A stretch of 64,000 bases of DNA from Clostridia bacterium (lineage in GTDB: Bacteria; Bacillota; Clostridia; Oscillospirales; QAKW01), in the NCBI GenBank assembly GCA_017560905.1, contig JAFZEA010000023.1, forward strand, positions 8,718 to 72,717, read 5' to 3'. Of this stretch, positions 47,473-63,871 are shown piece by piece. A model generated the notes under the pieces. That model was given only the letters and a program-made list of their open reading frames with translations, did not search any database and was not told the origin of the DNA. How positions within the stretch are numbered: position 1 is the first letter of the stretch; each line of letters begins with the position of its first letter. Both the position numbers and the translations under genes were made by a program.

Positions 47473-48789
47473 ATGAGATTTGCTCTGACTGCACTGTTGT
47501 GTAAGGCACTGAGCATAGCGGGTAAGTTGTTGGGCGGCGGCACCGATCTGCCGGGCAAAATTGCACTGAAAATGTATCCGCGCGTTATGAAAAAGCTGAA
47601 ATTTGACGGCAAAGTGTTGGCTATCACCGGCTCTAACGGTAAGACAACCACTGCCAACATCGTGGCACACGTTCTCCGCGAAAACGGCTACAGTGTTGTC
47701 AATAACGAGTTGGGATCCAATATGACCAGCGGTATTGCTTCCACGCTGTTGTGTGCGTGTACTCTGGGCGGCAGGATCAAGGCAGATTATGTCGTACTGG
47801 AAGTGGACGAGTGTTACAGCCGCTTTATATTCAAAGATCTGCGCATCGATTATTATTTGATACTTAATCTTTTGCGAGATCAGGTGGTGCGTAACGGTCA
47901 TCCCGATCTGGTCAGCACCAAAATTGTCGAGGCCATTGCCGCACAGCCTGAGATGACGCTCATTCTTAATGCTCAAGAGCCCATTTCGCAAAATCTGGCA
48001 GGGGACAACTACGCGGTATACTTTGCTATGGATCGCACCGAGCGTTCTACCGACAACTGTGTCAGCGGCACCCACGATGCCAAGATCTGTCCTCGTTGCT
48101 TCCACGAAATGAAGTACGAATTTTTCCACTACAATCATCTGGGTAATTTTGCTTGTACCCACTGTGATTATCAGAGTTTTCATCCCGATTTTTTGGCCAC
48201 CGACGTTGACTTTGAAAATAGGACGATTACCATCAACGGCGAACAGATCTCCGTGACTTACAACACCACCTTTAATATGTTCAACACCGTAGCCGCCGCT
48301 GCGCTGGCACTGACGGCAGGCGTGAGTATGGAGGAGTTTAAAAAAGGCGTAGCCACCTTCGGCGGTGCTAAGGGACGACTGGATACCTTTGACTTTGAGG
48401 GAAGAAAGGTCACCCTGATGATGACCAAGCAAAACGCCGCATCGCTTGACCAGTCCATTTCTTTTGTGTTGGAGCAAGCGGGGGATAAGAGCGTAGTGCT
48501 GTTTATCAACAACGTATTGTATCTTGACTATAAGGATATTTCCTGGTTATATGATGTGGCATTTGAAAGACTGCACGGTAAGGTTAAAAATATTCTTTGT
48601 ACCGGTAACCGTGCACTGGATGCTGCCGTTTGTATCAAGGCCTGCGATTTTGACAGTCGGACACTGCATTATGAGAATGACCTGTCCAAGATCAAAGAGG
48701 CTTTCCGCAATACTGAGGGCGATATCTATATCCTCGCCGCTTCTGCTTTCGGTCACGAGGGCAAGATCATAGAGGAGTTGAAAAAATGA
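47473..48789 (+). CDS. murT: MurT-like Mur ligase family protein (lipid II isoglutaminyl synthase ligase-subunit homologue)
   Basis: ITGSNGKTTT P-loop, the Cys4 ribbon CPRC...CTHC and a DUF1727-like C-terminus (DISWLYDVAFE). 438 aa. Confidence 0.8.
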   Translation: MRFALTALLCKALSIAGKLLGGGTDLPGKIALKMYPRVMKKLKFDGKVLAITGSNGKTTTANIVAHVLRENGYSVVNNELGSNMTSGIASTLLCACTLGGRIKADYVVLEVDECYSRFIFKDLRIDYYLILNLLRDQVVRNGHPDLVSTKIVEAIAAQPEMTLILNAQEPISQNLAGDNYAVYFAMDRTERSTDNCVSGTHDAKICPRCFHEMKYEFFHYNHLGNFACTHCDYQSFHPDFLATDVDFENRTITINGEQISVTYNTTFNMFNTVAAAALALTAGVSMEEFKKGVATFGGAKGRLDTFDFEGRKVTLMMTKQNAASLDQSISFVLEQAGDKSVVLFINNVLYLDYKDISWLYDVAFERLHGKVKNILCTGNRALDAAVCIKACDFDSRTLHYENDLSKIKEAFRNTEGDIYILAASAFGHEGKIIEELKK

Positions 48790-49502
48790 GAAACATAAAA
48801 ATATTGCATATTTATTCCAAGGCGCTTGATTTGTACGGAGATTATAAAAATCTGACAGTCCTCTCCCAGCGCATCCGCGAGACCGGCAACCAAGTGGAGA
48901 TCATCACCGCAGAACTTTTTGAAAACTTAGAGTTTTCGGGCTTTGATATGGTGTATATCGGTCATGGTAAGGTGAAGAATCTGGCGGCCGTGGCGGCTCA
49001 CTTTGTTCCCTACGCAGACAAGGTAAAAGAGCAGATCGAAAACGGACAGGTCTGGTTTGTTACCGGTAATGCTTCGGAGCTTTTTGGTCAGAGTTTTACC
49101 ACCCCCGACGGCGGGGAAATCAAGGGCATCGGCCTGTTTGACTATAAGGGCGTGGAAACCAATAAAGTATTTGTTTCTGATATGATCGGCCGTCCCGTAT
49201 TTGACAAAGAGGAAACCGTCTACGGTTTTGCCAACCGCACAGCGTATCTGGAGGGCGAGAACAAATATCCGCTCTTTGAGGTAATAGACGGCTTTTCAAA
49301 CGGCAAGACCCCTGACGGCAAGGAAGGCACGCTGTATAAAAACTTTTTTGCCACTTGGTCTATGGGACCGGTATTGTCCCGCAACCCCGCGCTGATGCGA
49401 GAGATTTTAAAACGCCTCTTAAAAGAGGACTACAAAGAATGTGATTATACTCTGGAGCAGCAGGCACTTGAACTGGTGTTGGCAGAGTTTAAGAAAGGAT
49501 AA
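48786..49502 (+). CDS. GatD-like CobQ/CobB-type glutamine amidotransferase homologue with substituted catalytic residues
   Basis: It overlaps murT by 4 nt. LDLYGDYKN and FTTPDGGEIKGIGLFDY align with GatD, but the nucleophile position reads TGNASE instead of CGGYQ, and the His position reads WSMGP instead of YLHGP. Confidence 0.7.
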   Translation: MRNIKILHIYSKALDLYGDYKNLTVLSQRIRETGNQVEIITAELFENLEFSGFDMVYIGHGKVKNLAAVAAHFVPYADKVKEQIENGQVWFVTGNASELFGQSFTTPDGGEIKGIGLFDYKGVETNKVFVSDMIGRPVFDKEETVYGFANRTAYLEGENKYPLFEVIDGFSNGKTPDGKEGTLYKNFFATWSMGPVLSRNPALMREILKRLLKEDYKECDYTLEQQALELVLAEFKKG

Positions 49503-55032: not shown

Positions 55033-55475
55033 TGTATCAGTTGCTTTGTGAACAGCTGCGCGCTCTGACAGATAGACCCTATCCCATTGCCAACCTTGCC
55101 AATGCGGCTGCTCTCTTATATCATACGATGGATCAGATCAACTGGGCGGGGTTTTATCTTCTGGAGGGAGATAAACTCATTCTGGGACCGTTTCAGGGCA
55201 AGAGTGCGTGTGTTGAGATTCCTTTGGGCAAAGGGGTCTGCGGCACCGCCGCTGTGAGAGATCAGACTGTAGTGGTGGAGGACGTGCATCTTTTTGAGGG
55301 GCACATTGCTTGTGACTGTGCCTCTGCTTCGGAGATCGTTATTCCCTTGCACAAGGACGGTAAGCTTATTGGCGTACTGGATATAGATTCGCCGGTCAAA
55401 AATCGCTTTTCACCGTCAGACAGACTGGGACTGGAACAGTTTGCTGAAATTTTAGAAAATACCAAAATCAAATAA
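55032..55475 (+). CDS. msrC: GAF-domain free methionine-(R)-sulfoxide reductase
   Basis: NWAGFYL..LILGPFQGK.ACVEIPLGKGVCG.AA and GHIACD..S.SEIVIPL motifs. Confidence 0.85.
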   Translation: MYQLLCEQLRALTDRPYPIANLANAAALLYHTMDQINWAGFYLLEGDKLILGPFQGKSACVEIPLGKGVCGTAAVRDQTVVVEDVHLFEGHIACDCASASEIVIPLHKDGKLIGVLDIDSPVKNRFSPSDRLGLEQFAEILENTKIK

Positions 55476-55515
55476 AAAAGTGGCGCACTTTTTAAAAGTG
55501 CGCCACGATGTTTTA
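55475..55515. terminator. Bidirectional terminator
   Basis: gtggcgcac (55480-88) pairs with gtgcgccac (55498-506), with flanking A/T runs. Confidence 0.85.
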
Positions 55516-56391
55516 TTGAGCTTTTTCTATTCTCGAGTACCAGAACACACCGCCCAAAATGAACAGTGCGCCCAATATTTGGAGAGGAGAGGGAATCTCT
55601 GCAAACAGAAATACCGCCAGCAGGGCGGCCACCACCGGCTCGAGCAGCTTGGCCGCTGAAATAAAAGAGGGGGAAAAGAATTTCAGGCACCAACTGAAAA
55701 TGCTGTGTCCCAGCAAGGTGGAAAAAGCCGAAAGCAGCAGTCCCACGATAACGGGGCTGATGCCATAGCCAAACAGGTGTGTATCCTGTGCCACACATAA
55801 AATCAAAAGAGAGAGCGCACAGGCACTGTACACCAGATAGGTATATACCGTGGTGGAGGCTTTTTTACGTACCTCTCTGCCGAGCAACATATAGACCGCA
55901 ACAGCAATGGCAGAGGCCAGTGAAAGCGCATCTCCCAACAGGTGCGCTTCGCTTGTCGAATCGGCAAAGGCGATGATAACGCTCCCGATAAAGGCTATGG
56001 CAATGGCAAGGCCTGCCTTTATGGTGATCTTACCCTTTAAAAACAAGCAGTAGCCGATGGACACCCAGATGACCTCTGTGCATACCAGCGCCGTTGAGCT
56101 TGCTACTGAGGTGTGCTGTAACGACTCAAACCACAGCACGAAATGTGCCGCCAGAAAGATGCCGCTGACAATGCTCAGTATTACGGTTTTACTTCCGCAA
56201 GAAAAGAGCTCTGTTCGTATATTCTTTTTGCCCCAGACGGCAGGACTCATCAACAGTACCGTCCATATAAGGCGGGAGGCGGCGGTCACGGCGGAGGGGG
56301 CGGCGGAATACTTGACAAGAATGGCCGACAGTCCGATGCCAAGCACACCGATGACGATCATTATAAGTGGGTGTTTTTTAAAATATTTCAT
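55513..56391 (-). CDS. EamA/DMT-family transporter
   Basis: 292 aa, 10 TM, with a duplicated EamA-like pattern. Confidence 0.85.
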   Translation of the reverse strand: MKYFKKHPLIMIVIGVLGIGLSAILVKYSAAPSAVTAASRLIWTVLLMSPAVWGKKNIRTELFSCGSKTVILSIVSGIFLAAHFVLWFESLQHTSVASSTALVCTEVIWVSIGYCLFLKGKITIKAGLAIAIAFIGSVIIAFADSTSEAHLLGDALSLASAIAVAVYMLLGREVRKKASTTVYTYLVYSACALSLLILCVAQDTHLFGYGISPVIVGLLLSAFSTLLGHSIFSWCLKFFSPSFISAAKLLEPVVAALLAVFLFAEIPSPLQILGALFILGGVFWYSRIEKAQ

Positions 56392-56475: not shown

Positions 56476-56504
56476 TTGATATATATTAGATTATATGTTA
56501 TACT
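56476..56504 (+). promoter_or_regulatory. sigma-A promoter for the ACP-MBOAT cassette
   Basis: TTGATA (56476-81), a 17-nt spacer, then TATACT (56499-504). Confidence 0.6.
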
Positions 56505-56568
56505 GACTAATTGTATAAGAACTTGCAAAAGAAAATGACTTTAAAACTGTAGAAGGAGAAGAAATACT

Positions 56569-56799
56569 ATGGATAAAATTTTGGAGATTTTGAAATCTAT
56601 AAGAGATGATGTGGATTTTGAAAACGAAACATTGTTGATCGATGGAGGTATTTTGGATAGCTTTGATATCGTATCGATCGTAGCAGAATTGTGTGCAGAA
56701 TACGATATAACCATTACCGCAGATATGTTGGAACCCAAGAATTTTAACAGCGCTGCGGCTATGTTGGCTTTGGTAGAGAGCATTTTAGACGAGGAATAA
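56569..56799 (+). CDS. acyl/D-alanyl carrier protein (DltC-like)
   Basis: 76 aa. GGILDSFDIVSIVAEL carries the phosphopantetheine Ser in a DltC-like GIIDSF context. Confidence 0.85.
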   Translation: MDKILEILKSIRDDVDFENETLLIDGGILDSFDIVSIVAELCAEYDITITADMLEPKNFNSAAAMLALVESILDEE

Positions 56800-56835
56800 A
56801 ATTGTAACAGCGCAGAAACAGAAAGGAAAAGGGAA

Positions 56836-58449
56836 ATGTCTTTTACTTCATTTAATTTTTTTCTTTTTTTATTTGGCGTTATTCTCGTGTATTATCTTGT
56901 GCCGAAGAAACTGCAATGGGCCGTTCTTTTGATCGCCAGCTACGGTTTTTATCTCAGCACCGGAACAGATAACCTTGCCTACATAATATTTACAACATTA
57001 TTTACTTATTGCGCCGGAAGATTTATGCAGAGGCAACGCAATAAGAGTCAAAAGAAAATACTCGACATGGGCGAGGATGTCAGCCGAGAGAAAAAGCGAG
57101 AGATTAAAAAGATTACCGCACAAAAGGTGCGTACCATACAGATCGTAACTGCTCTGATCAATCTGGGCGTATTGGTGTTTGTAAAAACGGCCGGTTTTTT
57201 CACGGCAAACATAAACCAGTTTTTTGACTTTTTCCAATGGAATGCCTCTGTCCCGGTGGTTAATATAATTGCACCGTTGGGTCTTTCTTACTACACTTTC
57301 AATTCTATCGGTTATCTGATCGACGTGGGTCGCGGCAAGATTGAGGCAGAAAAGCATCTGGGTAAGTTCGCATTATTTGTATCTTTTTTTCCTTCCATTG
57401 TTCAAGGCCCGCTGTTCCGTTATGGCGATGTAGGTCAGCAACTGCAACAACCCCATAAGTTAGAGTACAATAATCTTAAATTTGGTGCACAACTTATTCT
57501 TTGGGGCTGCTTTAAAAAGTTGGTTATTGCCGACAGAGTCAGTGCGATCGCATCTGCAATATTTTCCTCGGATTTTGTTTCGGGCGAATTCAACGGCGCA
57601 CAGGTGTTTTTTGGAGTTTTGGCGTATTCCTTCCAGATTTACGGCGACTTTTCGGGCGGCACCGATATCACGAGAGGTGTGGCACAGATGTTGGGCATAG
57701 ACCTGCCGGTGAACTTCGAACAGCCCTTTTTTGCCACCTCCATGGCAGACTTTTGGCGTAGGTGGCATATGTCACTTGGTGCATGGATGAGGGAGTTTGT
57801 GTTTTTCCCCGTTATGCTGTGCAAGCCGGTTACCGCTCTCAGTAAAAGCTTTCGTAATCGATTTGGAAGCCATGCCGGCAAAATGGTCCCCTCTGTTGTG
57901 GCCCCGATGGTGGTGTTTTTCCTGATTGGTATTTGGCACGGAATATCGTGGCAGTACATTGTCAACGGATTATATAATGCCATTATTATTTCTTCAAGTG
58001 TAGCGCTGGCACCGGTGTATGTTAAGTTGGCAGAAAAACTGCGAGTCAATACAGAGGCATTTAGTTTTCGTTTGTTCCAGATATTGCGAACCTTCTGTGT
58101 TTTGTGCATATCACGTATCATTGTTAAAGCACCCAGCCTGTGGGACGCTATGCGTATGATCCGCTCGCTGTTCCGTCCATGGGATATGGATTTCTTTTTG
58201 GGCAACAATGGAGAAATTTTTTCCTACGGTGTAAATGAAAAGCAGATGTTTGTCCTGTTTATTTCGATATTGGTGCTGCTGGTGGTAGGCATCCTGAGAG
58301 AGGGCGGCATGAAGATAAGAGAAACGCTGGACAAACAGAATTTGATTTTCCGTTGGGGCATGGTATTGCTTTTATTTGTATTTGTTTTGATCTTCGGTAT
58401 TTACGGTCCCGGCTATGATGCCAGTGATTTTATTTATGGTCAATTCTAA
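56836..58449 (+). CDS. MBOAT-family membrane O-acyltransferase (AlgI/DltB-like)
   Basis: FWRRWHMSLGAWMREFVFFP and the invariant His region GIWHG. 537 aa, polytopic. Confidence 0.9.
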   Translation: MSFTSFNFFLFLFGVILVYYLVPKKLQWAVLLIASYGFYLSTGTDNLAYIIFTTLFTYCAGRFMQRQRNKSQKKILDMGEDVSREKKREIKKITAQKVRTIQIVTALINLGVLVFVKTAGFFTANINQFFDFFQWNASVPVVNIIAPLGLSYYTFNSIGYLIDVGRGKIEAEKHLGKFALFVSFFPSIVQGPLFRYGDVGQQLQQPHKLEYNNLKFGAQLILWGCFKKLVIADRVSAIASAIFSSDFVSGEFNGAQVFFGVLAYSFQIYGDFSGGTDITRGVAQMLGIDLPVNFEQPFFATSMADFWRRWHMSLGAWMREFVFFPVMLCKPVTALSKSFRNRFGSHAGKMVPSVVAPMVVFFLIGIWHGISWQYIVNGLYNAIIISSSVALAPVYVKLAEKLRVNTEAFSFRLFQILRTFCVLCISRIIVKAPSLWDAMRMIRSLFRPWDMDFFLGNNGEIFSYGVNEKQMFVLFISILVLLVVGILREGGMKIRETLDKQNLIFRWGMVLLLFVFVLIFGIYGPGYDASDFIYGQF

Positions 58450-58466
58450 ATTAAAGGAGAAGGCAT

Positions 58467-59546
58467 ATGACTAAAAAACAGATTGGCCGTTGTTGTGCGT
58501 TTGTTTTAGTGGTTTGTTTGCTTCTGGTTTTTTTGAGCGACCTGTTTGAGCTGGAAAACACCACAAATTATGACAAGAGATTTTATACATACAGAACGCT
58601 GGAGTCAAACACAGTGGATGCCATTGTTATCGGCACAAGCGGTATAGATCGCTACTATGTGGCACCCAAAGCGTTTGAAGAGCACGGATTATCGGTGTAT
58701 ACATTAAGCACAGATGCCATGCCCTCCTGGCTGTATATCGATGTGATTGAATATGCCTGCAGAAAGCAGGATCTCAAGCTGGTTGTTGTTGATATGCGCG
58801 CCTTCAGGCAGAATAACACAAAATCTGTTACCGTTGATGCACGTGGCAGACGCGTGATCGATGCGATGGATTTCTTTTCTCTTTCCCGCACCAAAGCGGC
58901 TTTTAAAACCATGGAAGTCATGCATGCGGTTTCCGATGAAAATCCCCGCTTTGACCTTTCCTATCTGCTGCCTTATATTAAATTCCACAGCAAATGGGAA
59001 GAGGAGTATTCCATTGCCAATAATCTGGGAAGCAAGGAACATCTTTACGGCGGCTTTTTTATGAGCTCCAGGAAAAGCCTTAAGAAGCAAGAACAAAGCC
59101 CGCTTGTATATGATAATGACGTTTATGAGGATCTGGATCCTATCGCAGAGGAGTCTTTGTATGAGCTTTTGGACTATGCGGAGAAGAAGGGGCTGGAGTT
59201 GTTATTTGTAGACACCCCTCATTATAAAGACGATTCCGAAATGGCCCGTTCCAATACGCTGCAAAAGATTTTAAAAGAGCGAGGAATGAATTACGTCAAT
59301 TATTGCCAAACTAACGAAAACGGTGATTTCCTGTATGATTTAAACCTCGATCATAATAACGATTTTTACAACGATGCCCATGTTAACTACTATGGTGCAG
59401 AGAAATTTACAGATGTTTTTGCAAGATATCTTGTTGAAAATTACGACCTTCCTGATCGCAGACAAGATGAAGCCGCACAAAAATATTGGAACGGCATTTA
59501 TGCAAAAATCAAAAGAGATATTGAAAAATGGGAAAAGGACGCATAG
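58467..59546 (+). CDS. membrane-anchored accessory protein, DltD/SGNH-like (unassigned)
   Basis: N-terminal TM anchor. VIGTSGIDRY is a possible nucleophile block and NDAHVNYYGAEKF is a D..H block as in DltD/AlgJ-type proteins. Confidence 0.5.
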   Translation: MTKKQIGRCCAFVLVVCLLLVFLSDLFELENTTNYDKRFYTYRTLESNTVDAIVIGTSGIDRYYVAPKAFEEHGLSVYTLSTDAMPSWLYIDVIEYACRKQDLKLVVVDMRAFRQNNTKSVTVDARGRRVIDAMDFFSLSRTKAAFKTMEVMHAVSDENPRFDLSYLLPYIKFHSKWEEEYSIANNLGSKEHLYGGFFMSSRKSLKKQEQSPLVYDNDVYEDLDPIAEESLYELLDYAEKKGLELLFVDTPHYKDDSEMARSNTLQKILKERGMNYVNYCQTNENGDFLYDLNLDHNNDFYNDAHVNYYGAEKFTDVFARYLVENYDLPDRRQDEAAQKYWNGIYAKIKRDIEKWEKDA

Positions 59547-59579
59547 TTCATACCATTTGGTCGGCAATAGGAGGAAATT

Positions 59580-61058
59580 ATGTTAGGTTCAATTGCACTG
59601 ATGATTCAAAAGTTTGCAAAAGAAACGCCGGATAAAGTTGCGATTGTCGTAGGTAATGAGAGTTGCACATATGGGCAGTTGGCAGAATGCAACAGAAAGG
59701 CCGCCTTATACCTTAGCCAAAACGGCATACAGGCGGGGGATCGGGTTATAGTGGAATCAGATCATATTCTCCCGTATATATATGTGTGGTACGGTATTCA
59801 ATTATTGGGAGCGACCTTTGTACCTCTTGAAAAAGGAACGCCCAGCAATCGCGTGCGGGAGATCGCTTCGGAACTGAGCGTCTCTGCAGTTATTACGCTT
59901 ACCTCAAGAGAAGACTATGCTCAGGCATGGAATCTTCAGGATTTAATATCTCGTATTATGGAAACGGAAGATGGTTTTTCTGTGGATGACGTCAACAGCG
60001 AAAACTTATCTGAAATTTTGTTTACCACAGGAACCACAGGAAAATCCAAGGGTGTTATGGTTTCCTATGCAAATCAAATTAATATTGCTATGGCGGGTAT
60101 TGAATCTACCAATATCCAATCGGACAATATTTGGTTAATACCCACACCCATGAATCATGCGGCGGGCTTGAGAAAGGTTCATATTGCCATGGCCGTGGGA
60201 AGTACGGTTGTGCTTTTAGAAGGCTTTAGAAATTTCAAGGTGCTTTTTCAAACCATTCATGAGCACAAAGTCACATCTTTGTATTTGCCGCCTATGGCAA
60301 TCCATATGTTGTTGGCGATTGCCTCTCAGGAACTTGCCGCTTTGAATGACCAGTTAAGGTTTATTTATTCGAGCTCTTCGGCCTATCCTGAAACTGATAA
60401 AGAAAAGATGCGTAAGCTCATGCCGGATGTTTGTATGTACAACTGTTATGGCGGATCGGAAGTTGGGGTCGTTTGTACCGATGAGTTTTGCGTTTCGGGA
60501 GGCTCGGTTTATCCCGGCAGCGTGGGAAAACCCAATTCGCTGTGCAGCATTTTCATCATTGATGAGAATGACAATGTAATTGAAAACTCCTCTGCTGATA
60601 ATCCCGGCTTGATTGCCATTCGCAGTAAATCTGTAACTCAGGGTTATTGGGATGAGCCGGAGCAAACCGCCAAGGCATTTCGTAACGGTATGCTTGTAAT
60701 GAGCGATTTGGGCTATTTTGCTCCGAATGGTGAGCTGATCCTGGTGGGACGCAGCAACGATACGATTAATTTAGGCGGCTTTAAGGTGGCGCCTTTGGAG
60801 GTTGAGGAAGTGGTTATGCGCGTGCCCTGTGTGGACGAGTGTATGCTGATTCCCATATCCAGAGGGGGCAATACCGCTTTGAAATTACTTGTCGTGTTAA
60901 AAGAAGGTATGACGTTGGATGAAACGGCGATCCGTCAAATCATCGCTGATACCTTGGAACCATACAAACAGCCTAAAAAAATCCAAGTGATCGATGAAAT
61001 TATCCGCACCTTTAATGGTAAAATCGATCGCAAACAAATGATTGCCAAATATTCGTAA
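59580..61058 (+). CDS. ANL-superfamily adenylating enzyme (DltA-like carrier-protein ligase)
   Basis: AMP-binding core LFTTGTTGKSKGV, plus the GD.G and GK motifs (FNGKIDRKQ). Confidence 0.88.
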   Translation: MLGSIALMIQKFAKETPDKVAIVVGNESCTYGQLAECNRKAALYLSQNGIQAGDRVIVESDHILPYIYVWYGIQLLGATFVPLEKGTPSNRVREIASELSVSAVITLTSREDYAQAWNLQDLISRIMETEDGFSVDDVNSENLSEILFTTGTTGKSKGVMVSYANQINIAMAGIESTNIQSDNIWLIPTPMNHAAGLRKVHIAMAVGSTVVLLEGFRNFKVLFQTIHEHKVTSLYLPPMAIHMLLAIASQELAALNDQLRFIYSSSSAYPETDKEKMRKLMPDVCMYNCYGGSEVGVVCTDEFCVSGGSVYPGSVGKPNSLCSIFIIDENDNVIENSSADNPGLIAIRSKSVTQGYWDEPEQTAKAFRNGMLVMSDLGYFAPNGELILVGRSNDTINLGGFKVAPLEVEEVVMRVPCVDECMLIPISRGGNTALKLLVVLKEGMTLDETAIRQIIADTLEPYKQPKKIQVIDEIIRTFNGKIDRKQMIAKYS

Positions 61059-61059
61059 G

Positions 61060-61100
61060 AAAACCGCTCGACGTGCTTCGGCACGATCGAGCGGTTTTTT
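61060..61100 (+). terminator. Rho-independent terminator
   Basis: aaaaccgctcga..cgtgcttcggcacg..tcgagcggtttt followed by tttgtg. Confidence 0.9.
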
Positions 61101-61138
61101 GTGTTGACTTTGGCAGAGCAGGGGACTGGTTTGTACGG

Positions 61139-62038
61139 TCAATGTGTTTCTTTTAATAAGTTGATGGCGTATTGGGCATATTGAGAAAGATATTGTCCGC
61201 GGCGGGTAACAATAGCGGGTTGACGGGAGTATAAACTGTTTTTTATTTTGAAAAATGCAACATTACCGTTTAATGTTGAGTGGAAAAGGGGGTGTAAGGG
61301 CATGAGAGCACATCCCACTCCGGAGTATACCATGGACCAAGCGGTAGTAACAGTAGATACCTCTGCAGCAATATGCGGAGTGAATCCTGCGGTGCTGCAA
61401 AAGTTGTCTAATAATTGCCGAAGCTCGTGCCCTTGTCCAAGTGTTACAAAAGGTAGCTTTCTTGCTGCAACAAAATCAAGCTCGTCTGTTGTGGCATCTA
61501 CGCCTTGAATTAAATCACGCATGGAATCCGGAACAGCCAGTACCAGTGTATCGTGTGCCAGAGGAATTGCATCCATCAGTGATATATCAACGGGTAAATT
61601 TATGATGGCAAAATCCACTTTGCCTTCCGCTGCATCCTTTCGGAGCTGTACGCTGGGCACCTCATGGAGCGTTACCTTTATTCCCGGAAAGGTTTCCCGC
61701 ATTTTTTTAATCAGATCGGGAGCTAAATGCAGACTGCGAAAAGGCGTGACCCCAATGGTCAGCTGTCCCATTTCGCTTGAATCAAACTGGCAAAGTACCT
61801 TACGTAGTTGTTCTTCACGGAAGGTCAGCTCACGTGCGTTGTGGATAAAATATTCACCGGCAGGGGTCAGGGACAATGGGCTGCGATTTCGGTTAAATAA
61901 TACGACGCCGAGATCTCTCTCTAAATTCTGAATTTGTTTGCTTAGAGCAGATTGAGAGATACCGAGTTGTTCTGCTGCTTTGGAAAAATTTAGTGTTTCT
62001 GACAGAACAAGGGCATATTGAACCTGCTTTATATTCAT
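61139..62038 (-). CDS. LysR-family transcriptional regulator
   Basis: The N-terminal HTH is MNIKQVQYALVLSETLNFSKAAEQLGISQSALSKQIQNLE. 299 aa. Confidence 0.92.
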   Translation of the reverse strand: MNIKQVQYALVLSETLNFSKAAEQLGISQSALSKQIQNLERDLGVVLFNRNRSPLSLTPAGEYFIHNARELTFREEQLRKVLCQFDSSEMGQLTIGVTPFRSLHLAPDLIKKMRETFPGIKVTLHEVPSVQLRKDAAEGKVDFAIINLPVDISLMDAIPLAHDTLVLAVPDSMRDLIQGVDATTDELDFVAARKLPFVTLGQGHELRQLLDNFCSTAGFTPHIAAEVSTVTTAWSMVYSGVGCALMPLHPLFHSTLNGNVAFFKIKNSLYSRQPAIVTRRGQYLSQYAQYAINLLKETH

Positions 62039-62131
62039 ATTTGGACCGCCTCTCTATCCCACAAGATGTAGTATATTTATAATACATCTTTCATTGTGAA
62101 AAAGCAACATTATATTTTAAAAGAAATTCTA

Positions 62132-62160
62132 TTGACAAAGCATAATAATCTTGTTATGAT
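62132..62160 (+). promoter_or_regulatory. sigma-A promoter for the permease gene, divergent from the LysR gene
   Basis: TTGACA (62132-37), a 17-nt spacer, then TATGAT (62155-60). Confidence 0.55.
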
Positions 62161-62214
62161 ATTTCTGAAAAGGAATAGAATCTATTACAATTTAGAATGA
62201 AAGGAGTTTTTGCT

Positions 62215-63579
62215 ATGGAAGCATTATTGTATTTAGGCATACTGTTGGCAATCATTTGTGTATGGTTTCTGGCGTTTAAGCGACCGGTTTATGAGGCAGT
62301 TCTTCTGGCCTTTGTTGTGTTGCTCTTTGTGACCGGAACCTGGGGCAATGTTTTGTCCTATATCGATGAGGGTCTGTCGACCTCATTGTTATACTCAATG
62401 GTGGCCTTTGTTGCTATGTCCATTTTGCTGACAAAAACAAAAATTGTCGACAGCTGTATCGCTGTCATCTTATCGCTGATAGGTCGTATCCGTGGTGGTG
62501 CAGGATATACGGCTGTTGTAGCCAGCTCCTTTATGGGTGCGCTGTCCGGCTCCGGCCCCGGCAACGTAATGGCCACCGGAACCCTGACCATTCTGGCTAT
62601 GAAGCGCACCGGTTTTCCTGCTGAATTGGCCGCTAACATTGAGTCCAATGCCAGTTATATGGGGAATATGATTCCTCCATCCTCCAATATTGTGGCGGCA
62701 ATGGCCGCTTTCACAACATTTGCTTCAGGTGCCGGCATTGCTGATGTAACGCAGGGACAGTTCTGGATTGCATTGTGGGGAATTTCGGCCTGGTTTATCG
62801 CGCAGCGCCTGATTATGGTGTGGGCTTTTTGTAAATATTATAAGGTAAAGCCTATGAGCAAGGAGGAACTTCCCGATCTGAAGCAAACCTTAAAGGCCGG
62901 TTGGCAGGCTTTGTTATTACCGCTTGTCATCCTGCTTCCTTTTGTCTTGGATGCTATTTTTGCAGACAACTTTTTTGTGGCTCGTCTGGGAGAAACGGGT
63001 GCCGGTTACCTGTCAAAGTCGGTACTGTTGTTTGTTGCAGGAATCTCGGCTTTGTACGCATGCCTGATCGTGAAGGACAAGTCTACCATCACCCCCGGCA
63101 AGATTGCAAAGATGTTTGCCGATGGTATTAAAACGATTGCCCCTGCGATCGGGGTTTGTGTATTTGGCTATATGATCGGTGCCATGTTTGAGGATTTGAA
63201 TGTGGCCAAATCGCTTGGTGAATTGATCACCACCTGGAACTTTGGAAAGCTTGGTATGATTTTGGCCATCTGTGCGATCACCCTCGTTATGGGCATGGTG
63301 GTTCCCGGTTCCTCACAAATTGTTATTTTTGGGCCCATGTTTATCACCCTGCTGTCCAATGTCGGTGTTAATCCTCTCTTGGCAGCCGCCATGTTGCCTT
63401 GCATTTGCGGTGTTATGTGCGGCATCACACCGCCCTTGGGTCTGGGCATGTATGCGGGTATGACCATTGCAGAGTCGGATTTTAGCAAAACCTTTAAAAA
63501 CAATCTTTGGTGGGTCAGTGCACAGTTTATTTTACAGGTTTTGGTTTTGATGGGTTTGCTGCCCATATTTGGATTGTAA
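62215..63579 (+). CDS. DctM-like (TRAP large-subunit family) permease
   Basis: GGAGYTAVVASSFMGALSGSGPGNVMATG...MIPPSSNIV resembles the DctM signature. About 12 TM. ATG 62215 follows aaaggag. Confidence 0.7.
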   Translation: MEALLYLGILLAIICVWFLAFKRPVYEAVLLAFVVLLFVTGTWGNVLSYIDEGLSTSLLYSMVAFVAMSILLTKTKIVDSCIAVILSLIGRIRGGAGYTAVVASSFMGALSGSGPGNVMATGTLTILAMKRTGFPAELAANIESNASYMGNMIPPSSNIVAAMAAFTTFASGAGIADVTQGQFWIALWGISAWFIAQRLIMVWAFCKYYKVKPMSKEELPDLKQTLKAGWQALLLPLVILLPFVLDAIFADNFFVARLGETGAGYLSKSVLLFVAGISALYACLIVKDKSTITPGKIAKMFADGIKTIAPAIGVCVFGYMIGAMFEDLNVAKSLGELITTWNFGKLGMILAICAITLVMGMVVPGSSQIVIFGPMFITLLSNVGVNPLLAAAMLPCICGVMCGITPPLGLGMYAGMTIAESDFSKTFKNNLWWVSAQFILQVLVLMGLLPIFGL

Positions 63580-63592
63580 GGGGGAAGCTCGC

Positions 63593-63871
63593 ATGAAAAG
63601 AATTTGCAAAAAGATTTCGGATGTGCTGAAGACAGTTTTCGGTTATGGGATCATGATTTCCTTATTTGCCGGCGGACTGACATTCTTTGGTTATGTAGCT
63701 GCTCTTTTGATCGGCGGAGAGATTGCCGCCGCTATTTGTACGGTGATCTACAAGCATATCATCCCGGTTATTATCTACTTGGCTGTTATTATGGTGTTGC
63801 TTGGTCTGCTGGCTATGTATTTGGCAGGGGAAAAAGCACTGACACCCGAAAAAAAGAAAGCACAAAAGTAA
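63593..63871 (+). CDS. small membrane protein (92 aa, 2-3 TM)
   Basis: RBS aaggggga precedes ATG 63593. It lies 13 nt after the permease gene, with hydrophobic helices and a basic C-terminus. Confidence 0.55.
   Translation: MKRICKKISDVLKTVFGYGIMISLFAGGLTFFGYVAALLIGGEIAAAICTVIYKHIIPVIIYLAVIMVLLGLLAMYLAGEKALTPEKKKAQK

Follow-up and report, generated by a model that had tools for sequence, protein, structure and literature searches.

We analysed a 64,000-nucleotide stretch of DNA (hereafter the window) from contig JAFZEA010000023.1 of a Clostridia bacterium of the order Oscillospirales (assembly GCA_017560905.1), and find that a four-gene cassette at window positions 56476–61100 probably encodes a pathway in which a carrier protein feeds a membrane-bound O-acyltransferase (MBOAT) along with its SGNH-fold partner, which together would acylate an extracytoplasmic polymer of the cell envelope. 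Such a pathway would be a hybrid of the D-alanylation (Dlt) machinery and systems of the PatAB/AlgI type, and it would add a second carrier-fed route of this sort to the D-alanylation of teichoic acids. The cassette consists of four open reading frames (ORFs), all on the + strand and separated by gaps of 36, 17, and 33 bp, which encode a carrier protein of 76 residues (56569–56799), an MBOAT of 537 residues (56836–58449), a protein of 359 residues with a predicted membrane-anchored SGNH fold (58467–59546; the third protein below), and an ANL-superfamily adenylating enzyme of 492 residues (59580–61058). In the public record, these genes are named acyl carrier protein, MBOAT family protein, hypothetical protein, and acyl-CoA ligase. 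An earlier note, made from the sequence without database searches, had recognized the four functional classes of the Dlt machinery here in the order C-B-D-A, and Pfam, structure searches, and the ORF positions agree with it. What is new in the cassette is the combination of a Dlt-like donor logic, a PatA/AlgI-like MBOAT architecture, a new SGNH family, and an adenylating pocket of a non-amino-acid type.

With the direction and chemistry of each transfer modeled on Dlt and PatAB (PMC12148441), the pathway would begin in the cytoplasm, where the ANL enzyme would adenylate a carboxylic acid that lacks an alpha-amino group and probably bears a distal anionic or polar group, and would then thioesterify this acid onto the phosphopantetheine arm at Ser31 of the carrier protein. 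The loaded carrier would dock at the cytoplasmic face of the MBOAT, and His311 would move the acyl group across the membrane to Tyr534 in the FIYGQF tail of the same enzyme, a transfer that in Dlt is the job of a separate microprotein, DltX. The tail would hand the acyl group to Ser58 of the anchored SGNH protein, which would then esterify a hydroxyl on a glycopolymer at the cell surface. Candidate acceptors are teichoic acid, a secondary wall polysaccharide, and peptidoglycan.

The MBOAT joins a DltB-like core to a C-terminal extension of a different kind. The protein matches the MBOAT family PF03062 (Pfam, E = 8.6e-17), and its sole sequence matches in the PDB are DltB proteins (E = 5e-33), with the segment FWRRWHMSL aligned to FWNRWHMSL of DltB. 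The DltB model TIGR04091 spans residues 125–429 with a score of 171.5 bits (cut-off 375), and DltB is also the top fold match (E = 1e-8, TM-score 0.61) of the AlphaFold2 model of the MBOAT (pLDDT 72.7). The DltB-like core thus delimited (approximately residues 125–429) is preceded by a charged insertion at approximately residues 60–97. The predicted catalytic residue, His311 (codon 57766–57768), aligns to the region of the catalytic His of DltB, and W310, H311, and H368 are invariant in 63 of 63 orthologues. To our knowledge, DltB is the only MBOAT with a carrier protein as the donor. The MBOAT had previously been labeled AlgI-like, in part for its FWRRWHMSL and GIWHG segments; since DltB shares both, they are general MBOAT motifs, and the core is closest to DltB. 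What holds of that label is the length of 537 residues and the AlgI/PatA-type C-terminal extension with its FXYXXF motif. The NCBI record begins the MBOAT gene 17 codons downstream, which omits window positions 56836–56886 and yields 520 residues; orthologues align from the upstream ATG, giving the length of 537.

The extension continues for 108 residues past the end of the DltB model and includes two hydrophobic helices (residues 468–489 and 503–526) that have no counterpart in that model. It terminates in DFIYGQF, of which FIYGQF (F532-I-Y534-G-Q-F537) is encoded at 58429–58446 on the + strand. All 62 MBOAT orthologues recovered end in the pattern F-x-Y-x-x-[FYH], and F532 and Y534 are unchanged in 63 of 63. 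According to PMC12148441, the Tyr of FXYXXF takes up D-alanine in the microprotein DltX and acetate in PatA, and MBOATs outside Dlt carry the motif as a fused part of the enzyme, on two additional C-terminal helices. By analogy, Tyr534 is presumed to be the acyl-accepting residue, and, as read from its sequence, the extension ending in FXYXXF appears to stand in for a separate DltX. No small ORF was found in the 177-bp upstream region or within the operon. In Dlt, DltB is an MBOAT of approximately 400 residues that lacks the shuttle motif.

The donor side of the pathway is represented by the first and last genes. The carrier protein reaches 20.6 bits with the Pfam PP-binding model, near its gathering score of 20.8. 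Its top NCBIfam match is DltC, with scores far from equivalence (NF003464, 29.4 bits against a cut-off of 68; TIGR01688, 18.6 against 52.35), and DltC structures match it at E = 0.002–0.003 among PDB sequences. The predicted phosphopantetheine-attachment residue, Ser31 (codon 56659–56661), lies within the segment ILDSFDIV, and D30-S31-F32-D33 is invariant in 55 of 55 orthologues. The adenylating enzyme matches PF00501 (E = 2.9e-58) and PF13193 (E = 4.7e-10), and motifs A3, A5, A7, A8, and A10 can be read intact in its translation (TTGTTGKSKG, YGGSE, SDLG, GRSND, and NGKIDRK, respectively), with the A10 lysine, Lys481, invariant in orthologues. We presume that it acts as an acyl-carrier-protein ligase.

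The substrate of the adenylating enzyme cannot be assigned from overall similarity. The DltA models TIGR01734 and NF003417 score 158.8 bits (cut-off 559.85) and 170.3 bits (cut-off 476), and the best NCBIfam matches are generic acyl-CoA ligases, which score equal to or above the DltA models. Matches in the PDB include adenylation (A) domains of nonribosomal peptide synthetases (NRPSs), beta-aminoacyl-ACP synthetases, MenE, oxalate- and malonate-CoA ligases, and DltA, all at E = 1e-31 to 1e-36 per domain. A match to LgrA at E = 1e-57 was considered as a clue to glycine activation; this value adds up two ordinary A-domain matches (85 + 112 bits), neither better per domain than those to MenE, the oxalate- and malonate-CoA ligases, or DltA, and was dropped.

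The binding pocket is more informative. In NRPS A domains and in DltA, Asp235 binds the amino group of the substrate (the Stachelhaus code). Two independent HMMER alignments to the A domains of LgrA place the segment MNHAAGLRK opposite xFDxSxxE, with His193 opposite Phe234, Ala194 (codon 60159–60161) opposite Asp235, and Arg198 (codon 60171–60173) at the W239-equivalent position on the pocket floor. Across 54 orthologues from two clades, the His, the Ala, the Arg, and the A10 Lys never vary, and the remaining pocket positions differ between the clades. Because Ala occupies the Asp235 position and the pocket-floor Arg is invariant, an alpha-amino acid substrate is unlikely. The invariant Arg198 suggests, by the same alignment, a distal anionic or polar group on the acid; Glu-activating NRPS codes carry Lys239, a parallel for an Arg at the pocket floor. 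The earlier note had called the enzyme a generic ANL adenylase with an unreadable substrate: the matches are indeed generic, and the substrate is partly readable from these two positions. Likewise, esterification of a surface polymer with an amino or acyl group, as it had proposed, is still the best reading, with an acyl cargo likely from the pocket sequence and an amino one unlikely given the Ala at the Asp235 position.

The same machinery might instead carry a fatty or aryl acid and bring about lipidation or arylation of a surface polymer or lipid. The top NCBIfam matches of the adenylating enzyme are fatty-acid-CoA ligases (PRK06187, 252 bits; PRK08316, 233 bits) and MenE, its A4 motif contains a His, as is typical for acyl- and aryl-CoA ligases, and MBOATs generally carry fatty acyl groups. 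These matches, however, all fall far under their cut-offs and are thus generic, and the invariant pocket-floor Arg, together with the Tyr299/Ser301 lining, disfavors a long hydrophobic tunnel. The DctM-family permease encoded beside the cassette here and in other genomes and the PrpD-family enzyme of the second clade (see below) point to small hydrophilic organic acids as well, and we regard a fatty or aryl cargo as unlikely.

The third protein has no match in Pfam, NCBIfam, or PDB sequences, either with phmmer or with a 27-member profile run on the PDB, or when all 27 members were searched against Pfam at E = 10; at this threshold, the DltD model of Pfam is likewise not matched. An AlphaFold2 model built from the 27-member alignment (pLDDT 89.6) consists of an N-terminal transmembrane helix (residues 3–27) and an alpha/beta domain, for which the top Foldseek matches are the DltD structures 7dxm, 6pfx, and 3bma (E = 2e-4 to 7e-4, probability 1.0, 12–13% identity), followed by GDSL/SGNH hydrolases and PatB. 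G56, S58, H305, N307, and G310 are family-invariant. The candidate nucleophile, Ser58 (in GTSG; codon 58638–58640), is located at a strand-to-helix junction after the strand 52–56, and the candidate base, His305 (in HVNYYG; codon 59379–59381), precedes the helix 308–325; Asp or Asn occupies position 302, Asp or Glu position 303, and Asp299 is conserved. The regions of Ser58 and His305 sit at the positions of SGNH blocks I and V. On the basis of the predicted structure, the third protein appears to be a membrane-anchored SGNH-fold protein and a functional analogue of DltD. Weak DltD/SGNH-like blocks had been noticed here by eye: VIGTSG and NDAHVNYYG do hold the invariant Ser58 and His305, and the predicted fold is DltD-like, while as sequence similarity the relationship was undetected by any method.

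The third protein belongs to a family without a Pfam model; clustered at 50%, this family counts 6605 representatives at E ≤ 1e-3, and 736 at the stricter limit of E ≤ 1e-30. Some distant relatives (P0335, P0359, and P0383) are fused to GDSL lipase, fn3, or GH85_C domains, consistent with an extracellular location of the family. In eight loci (L004, L016, L019, L020, L024, L025, L038, and L045), the SGNH-fold gene is present in two or three copies inside the cassette. Since this gene is duplicated and encodes the least conserved member of the cassette (41–55% identity), diversification of acceptor specificity is suggested.

The four classes of protein are those of Dlt, and the cassette might accordingly be read as an ordinary dlt operon, shuffled and divergent, that attaches D-alanine or another small amino acid (e.g., glycine) to teichoic acid. 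DltC is the top NCBIfam match of the carrier, DltB is the best sequence and fold match of the MBOAT, and DltD is the best fold match of the third protein. Against this, the scores fall far short of the Dlt models (DltA, 159–170 bits against 476–560; DltB, 171.5 against 375; DltC, 29 against 68), DltD is not matched in Pfam at E = 10, there is no separate DltX, and all 54 adenylase orthologues have Ala in place of the amino-binding Asp. The cassette is accompanied by a permease of the organic-anion type or by an enzyme of the PrpD family, and not by an alanine racemase. We therefore consider an ordinary dlt operon very improbable, in line with the suspicion voiced in the earlier note that this is not a bona fide dlt system, for which the adenylase pocket, different from that of DltA, and the low scores with the Dlt equivalog models speak.

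To assess the conservation of the cassette, we scanned one genome per GTDB species for the gene pattern and obtained 69 loci, all in metagenome-assembled genomes (MAGs) of Oscillospirales (Acutalibacteraceae, Oscillospiraceae, Ruminococcus, Faecousia) or Lachnospiraceae from animal guts. The full cassette recurs in approximately 51 species-level genomes in two gene orders. The C-B-D-A order of the window, for which a gene-neighborhood search had been proposed, is found in 36 loci in other genomes, with identities of 69–84% for the carrier, 69–76% for the ANL enzyme, 64–77% for the MBOAT, and 41–55% for the third protein. Two loci of this order (L047 and L053) have an ANL enzyme of another clade instead (37% identity). 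In the 15 other loci, the order is A-C-B-D (ANL-carrier-MBOAT-SGNH), and the ANL enzyme belongs to the second clade (36–40% identity). The four functions thus remain together across the two gene orders.

In 12 of the second-clade loci (L032, L040, L043, L046, L049–L052, L054, L055, L063, and L068), two enzyme genes lie 5' of the ANL gene in the same orientation, with a 22-bp gap. One encodes a member of the MmgE/PrpD family, with iminodisuccinate (IDS) epimerase and cis-aconitate decarboxylase as the nearest structures, and the other encodes a cyclic amidohydrolase resembling allantoinase and hydantoinase. The two enzymes may provide a built-in route to the acid of this sister cassette.

The same set of loci bears on the alternative that the MBOAT and the SGNH protein perform acetyl-CoA-dependent O-acetylation of the PatA/PatB or AlgI/AlgJ type on their own, the carrier and the ANL enzyme being unrelated neighbors. 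A fused FXYXXF is the architecture of MBOATs that use acyl-CoA (PMC12148441), and L003, L021, L065, and L067 have an MBOAT and a third-protein relative with no carrier or ANL gene nearby; in some other loci, a paralogue of the third protein stands alone. However, the carrier and ANL genes are part of the same tight operon and are linked to it in approximately 51 genomes and in both gene orders, the proteins that they encode are the most conserved members of the cassette (69–84% identity), and the MBOAT core resembles that of the carrier-dependent DltB. Acetylation from acetyl-CoA by the two proteins alone is thus improbable in our view, and a carrier-fed pathway is the reading that we retain.

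Comparison with characterized systems places this carrier-fed pathway between two groups. As in Dlt (DltA, DltC, DltB, DltX, and DltD), a stand-alone ANL enzyme and a carrier of approximately 80 residues would feed an MBOAT, and the group would, by analogy, pass via the FXYXXF tyrosine to a membrane-anchored SGNH-fold transferase; DltB and DltD are the nearest solved relatives of the MBOAT core and of the SGNH fold. The cassette departs from Dlt in its C-B-D-A gene order, in an MBOAT that itself bears the shuttle motif and two helices in place of a separate DltX, in an adenylating enzyme that lacks the amino-binding Asp, in a third protein whose sequence shows no detectable similarity to that of DltD, and in DltA, DltB, and DltC equivalog scores that are far under the cut-offs. 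Re-use of a Dlt-derived ligase and carrier to decorate another envelope molecule has precedents in AlmE/AlmF/AlmG of Vibrio cholerae and in the dra locus of Bordetella. These systems still carry amino acids (glycine, D-alanine) and keep the Asp, and AlmG is an LpxL-type acyltransferase rather than an MBOAT-SGNH pair.

Like the systems that modify peptidoglycan (PatA/PatB), alginate (AlgI/AlgJ/AlgX), and cellulose (WssH/WssI), the cassette pairs an extracytoplasmic transferase of the SGNH type with an MBOAT of approximately 470–540 residues whose C-terminal FXYXXF sits on two extra helices. The donor in those systems is acetyl-CoA, and they have no similar carrier, whereas the cassette conserves a carrier and a ligase; among the MBOAT-SGNH pathways described, Dlt combines a carrier with a separate DltX, and all others combine acyl-CoA with a fused shuttle (PMC12148441). 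In the searchable literature, outside of which lies the supplement of Schultz et al. 2023 that might mention such loci, we found no description of the four-gene cassette.

The cassette is bounded by expression signals on both sides. A promoter-like site at 56476–56504 (+ strand) is composed of TTGATA, a 17-nt spacer with a TG extension, and TATACT; it agrees with 10 of 12 consensus positions and is a consensus match only, of which this AT-rich DNA has many (18 found, 11.8 expected). A site of the TTGACA-17-TATAAT type is also present 5' of the carrier-protein gene in orthologous loci. Right after the last stop codon, an intrinsic terminator hairpin is followed by a U run (61058–61100, + strand); its folding energy is −30.6 kcal/mol (z = −6.97), and 0 of 200 shuffled sequences were as stable. 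The four genes form one transcription unit, and the ORFs lie between the two signals exactly as first placed. In the 5' leaders of the carrier gene in many orthologous loci (L001, L006–L008, L011, L013, L016, L018–L020, L027, and others), a hairpin of constant position and variable sequence directly follows the −10 box and could be a stem that stabilizes the mRNA or serves in regulation; the window shows no obvious counterpart.

An Rfam scan yielded no riboswitch able to name a ligand. Where the GAF-domain and EamA genes converge, a sub-threshold match to Trp_leader at 55475–55580 on the − strand (29.7 bits, E = 0.008; gathering score 41) lies between the two and is probably just a terminator-like hairpin. 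The EamA transporter gene, which is divergent from the cassette, was considered as a member of the unit and rejected, as it is not conserved beside the cassette elsewhere.

The base composition of the cassette supports the view that it was acquired fairly recently, from a donor with a lower GC content. The GC content is 0.4285 for the cassette and 0.483 for the window. The three large genes have values of 0.418–0.443, which is 2–3 standard deviations (SD) lower than those of the 46 other ORFs (0.498 ± 0.026), and their GC content at third codon positions (GC3), 0.45–0.49, is 1.3–2 SD lower (0.557 ± 0.050). The difference in GC content between the cassette and its flanks is −0.059 here and +0.003 ± 0.018 (range −0.039 to +0.043) in 50 orthologous loci, so the low value is not intrinsic to the cassette genes; the calculation confirms the impression, gained by eye, of an AT-rich cassette compatible with acquisition. 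No direct repeats, tRNA genes, or mobile-element genes flank the cassette to mark an insertion. In Acutalibacteraceae, a conserved radical-SAM/DUF2344 pair lies on one side of the cassette and CwlD/RadA/DUF6873 on the other, which is a further sign of insertion.

Downstream of the terminator, the window contains a three-gene module that is probably part of the same functional unit, which would then extend past 61100 to 63871. The first gene (61139–62038, − strand) encodes a LysR-family regulator of 299 residues with the Pfam domains HTH_1 and LysR_substrate. The second (62197–63579, + strand) encodes a stand-alone DctM-family permease (PF06808, E = 3.7e-54) of 460 residues from the first ATG; the public gene call starts at 62215 and gives 454 residues. 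The third (63569–63871, + strand) encodes a small conserved membrane protein of 92–100 residues (92 in the public call), for which family searches of the Pfam/NCBIfam type gave no match. The permease shares its DctM domain with the tripartite ATP-independent periplasmic (TRAP) transporters of the DctPQM type; it scores under the cut-offs of all TRAP models of NCBIfam, and no DctP or DctQ gene was found near it.

Orthologues of the permease adjoin the cassette in 13 loci at 66–82% identity and in two more at 44–52%, and the gene of the small membrane protein (63–73% identity in 13 loci) is always directly 3' of the permease gene. For LysR, 13 loci hold an orthologue of 44–58% identity no farther than 6 kb from the cassette, in several arrangements, and 4 further loci hold a more distant one (25–31%). 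The module is found upstream of the cassette on the same strand (L001, L005, L011, and L018), downstream as in the window (L009, L015, L017, and L020), or inverted (L016, L023, L025, and L027), and the survival of linkage through these rearrangements argues for a functional tie to the cassette. The LysR gene is also of low GC content (0.447; GC3 0.395), and the regulator probably belongs to the same acquired module as the cassette. The probable role of the regulator, the permease, and the small membrane protein is to provide or sense the acid. Both genomic contexts, the permease module and the MmgE/PrpD enzyme with its amidohydrolase, point to small organic acids, imported or made, as the cargo.

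The permease gene is preceded by a near-consensus promoter-like sequence, TTGACA-17-(TG)TATGAT, and by the dyad ATTTCTGAAAAGGAAT directly after it (62132–62176, + strand), a candidate operator. Equivalent dyads of the ATTCCATTGTTGGAAT or ATAACCGTTAT type occupy the same position in 12 other loci (L001, L005, L009, L011, L015, L016, L018, L019, L020, L023, L025, and L027). RNAalifold finds no RNA structure in the dyad (−0.75 kcal/mol), which makes a protein operator, perhaps for the divergent LysR gene product, the more likely interpretation; the dyad pattern is not enriched in the window. A 10-mer, TTTTAAAATA, shared by the cassette promoter and the LysR-permease intergenic region was set aside, as it is at about chance level in AT-rich DNA.

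Taken further, these contexts allow the tentative proposal that the cassette represents a second, hitherto undescribed carrier-dependent MBOAT-SGNH pathway in gut and rumen Oscillospirales, in which an organic acid imported from the environment through the dedicated, LysR-controlled DctM-like permease, or made by the PrpD-family enzyme in the sister clade, would be esterified onto a surface polymer. Several observations weigh against the pathway as we have described it. The MBOAT model is only moderately confident, with pLDDT below 50 at the tail, and the resemblance of the third protein to DltD comes from Foldseek alone, at TM-scores of 0.3–0.4. The argument from Arg198 for an anionic substrate leans on the alignment register and on an analogy with the NRPS code, and the view that the ANL enzyme loads the carrier rather than performing CoA ligation derives solely from gene linkage. 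L003 and L021 encode a closely related MBOAT and third protein and lack carrier and ANL genes within 6 kb, so the MBOAT might also accept another donor. The operator-like dyad is missing from the cassette promoter, and co-regulation by LysR is not supported. Finally, every genome that carries the cassette is an uncultured MAG.

Upstream in the same window, at approximately 47473–49502, a pair of genes encodes MurT-like (Mur_ligase_M/MurT_C) and GatD-like (GATase_3) proteins of peptidoglycan amidation, a further cell-wall modification system on this contig.

The presence of a carrier, a fused shuttle, and a non-amino-acid pocket in one cassette suggests that carrier-fed acylation of the envelope is broader than D-alanylation and that other acids can be delivered in this way. 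For the family of the third protein, with its thousands of cluster representatives, the cassette provides a predicted fold and a putative function. It also points to a surface modification in abundant uncultured gut and rumen Clostridia, which could affect their surface charge, their sensitivity to phages or antimicrobial peptides, and their recognition by the host. If the tentative proposal above is true, with an acid imported by the permease or made by the PrpD-family enzyme, this would be an envelope decoration of a new class, through which a gut metabolite is tied directly to the chemistry of the cell surface.

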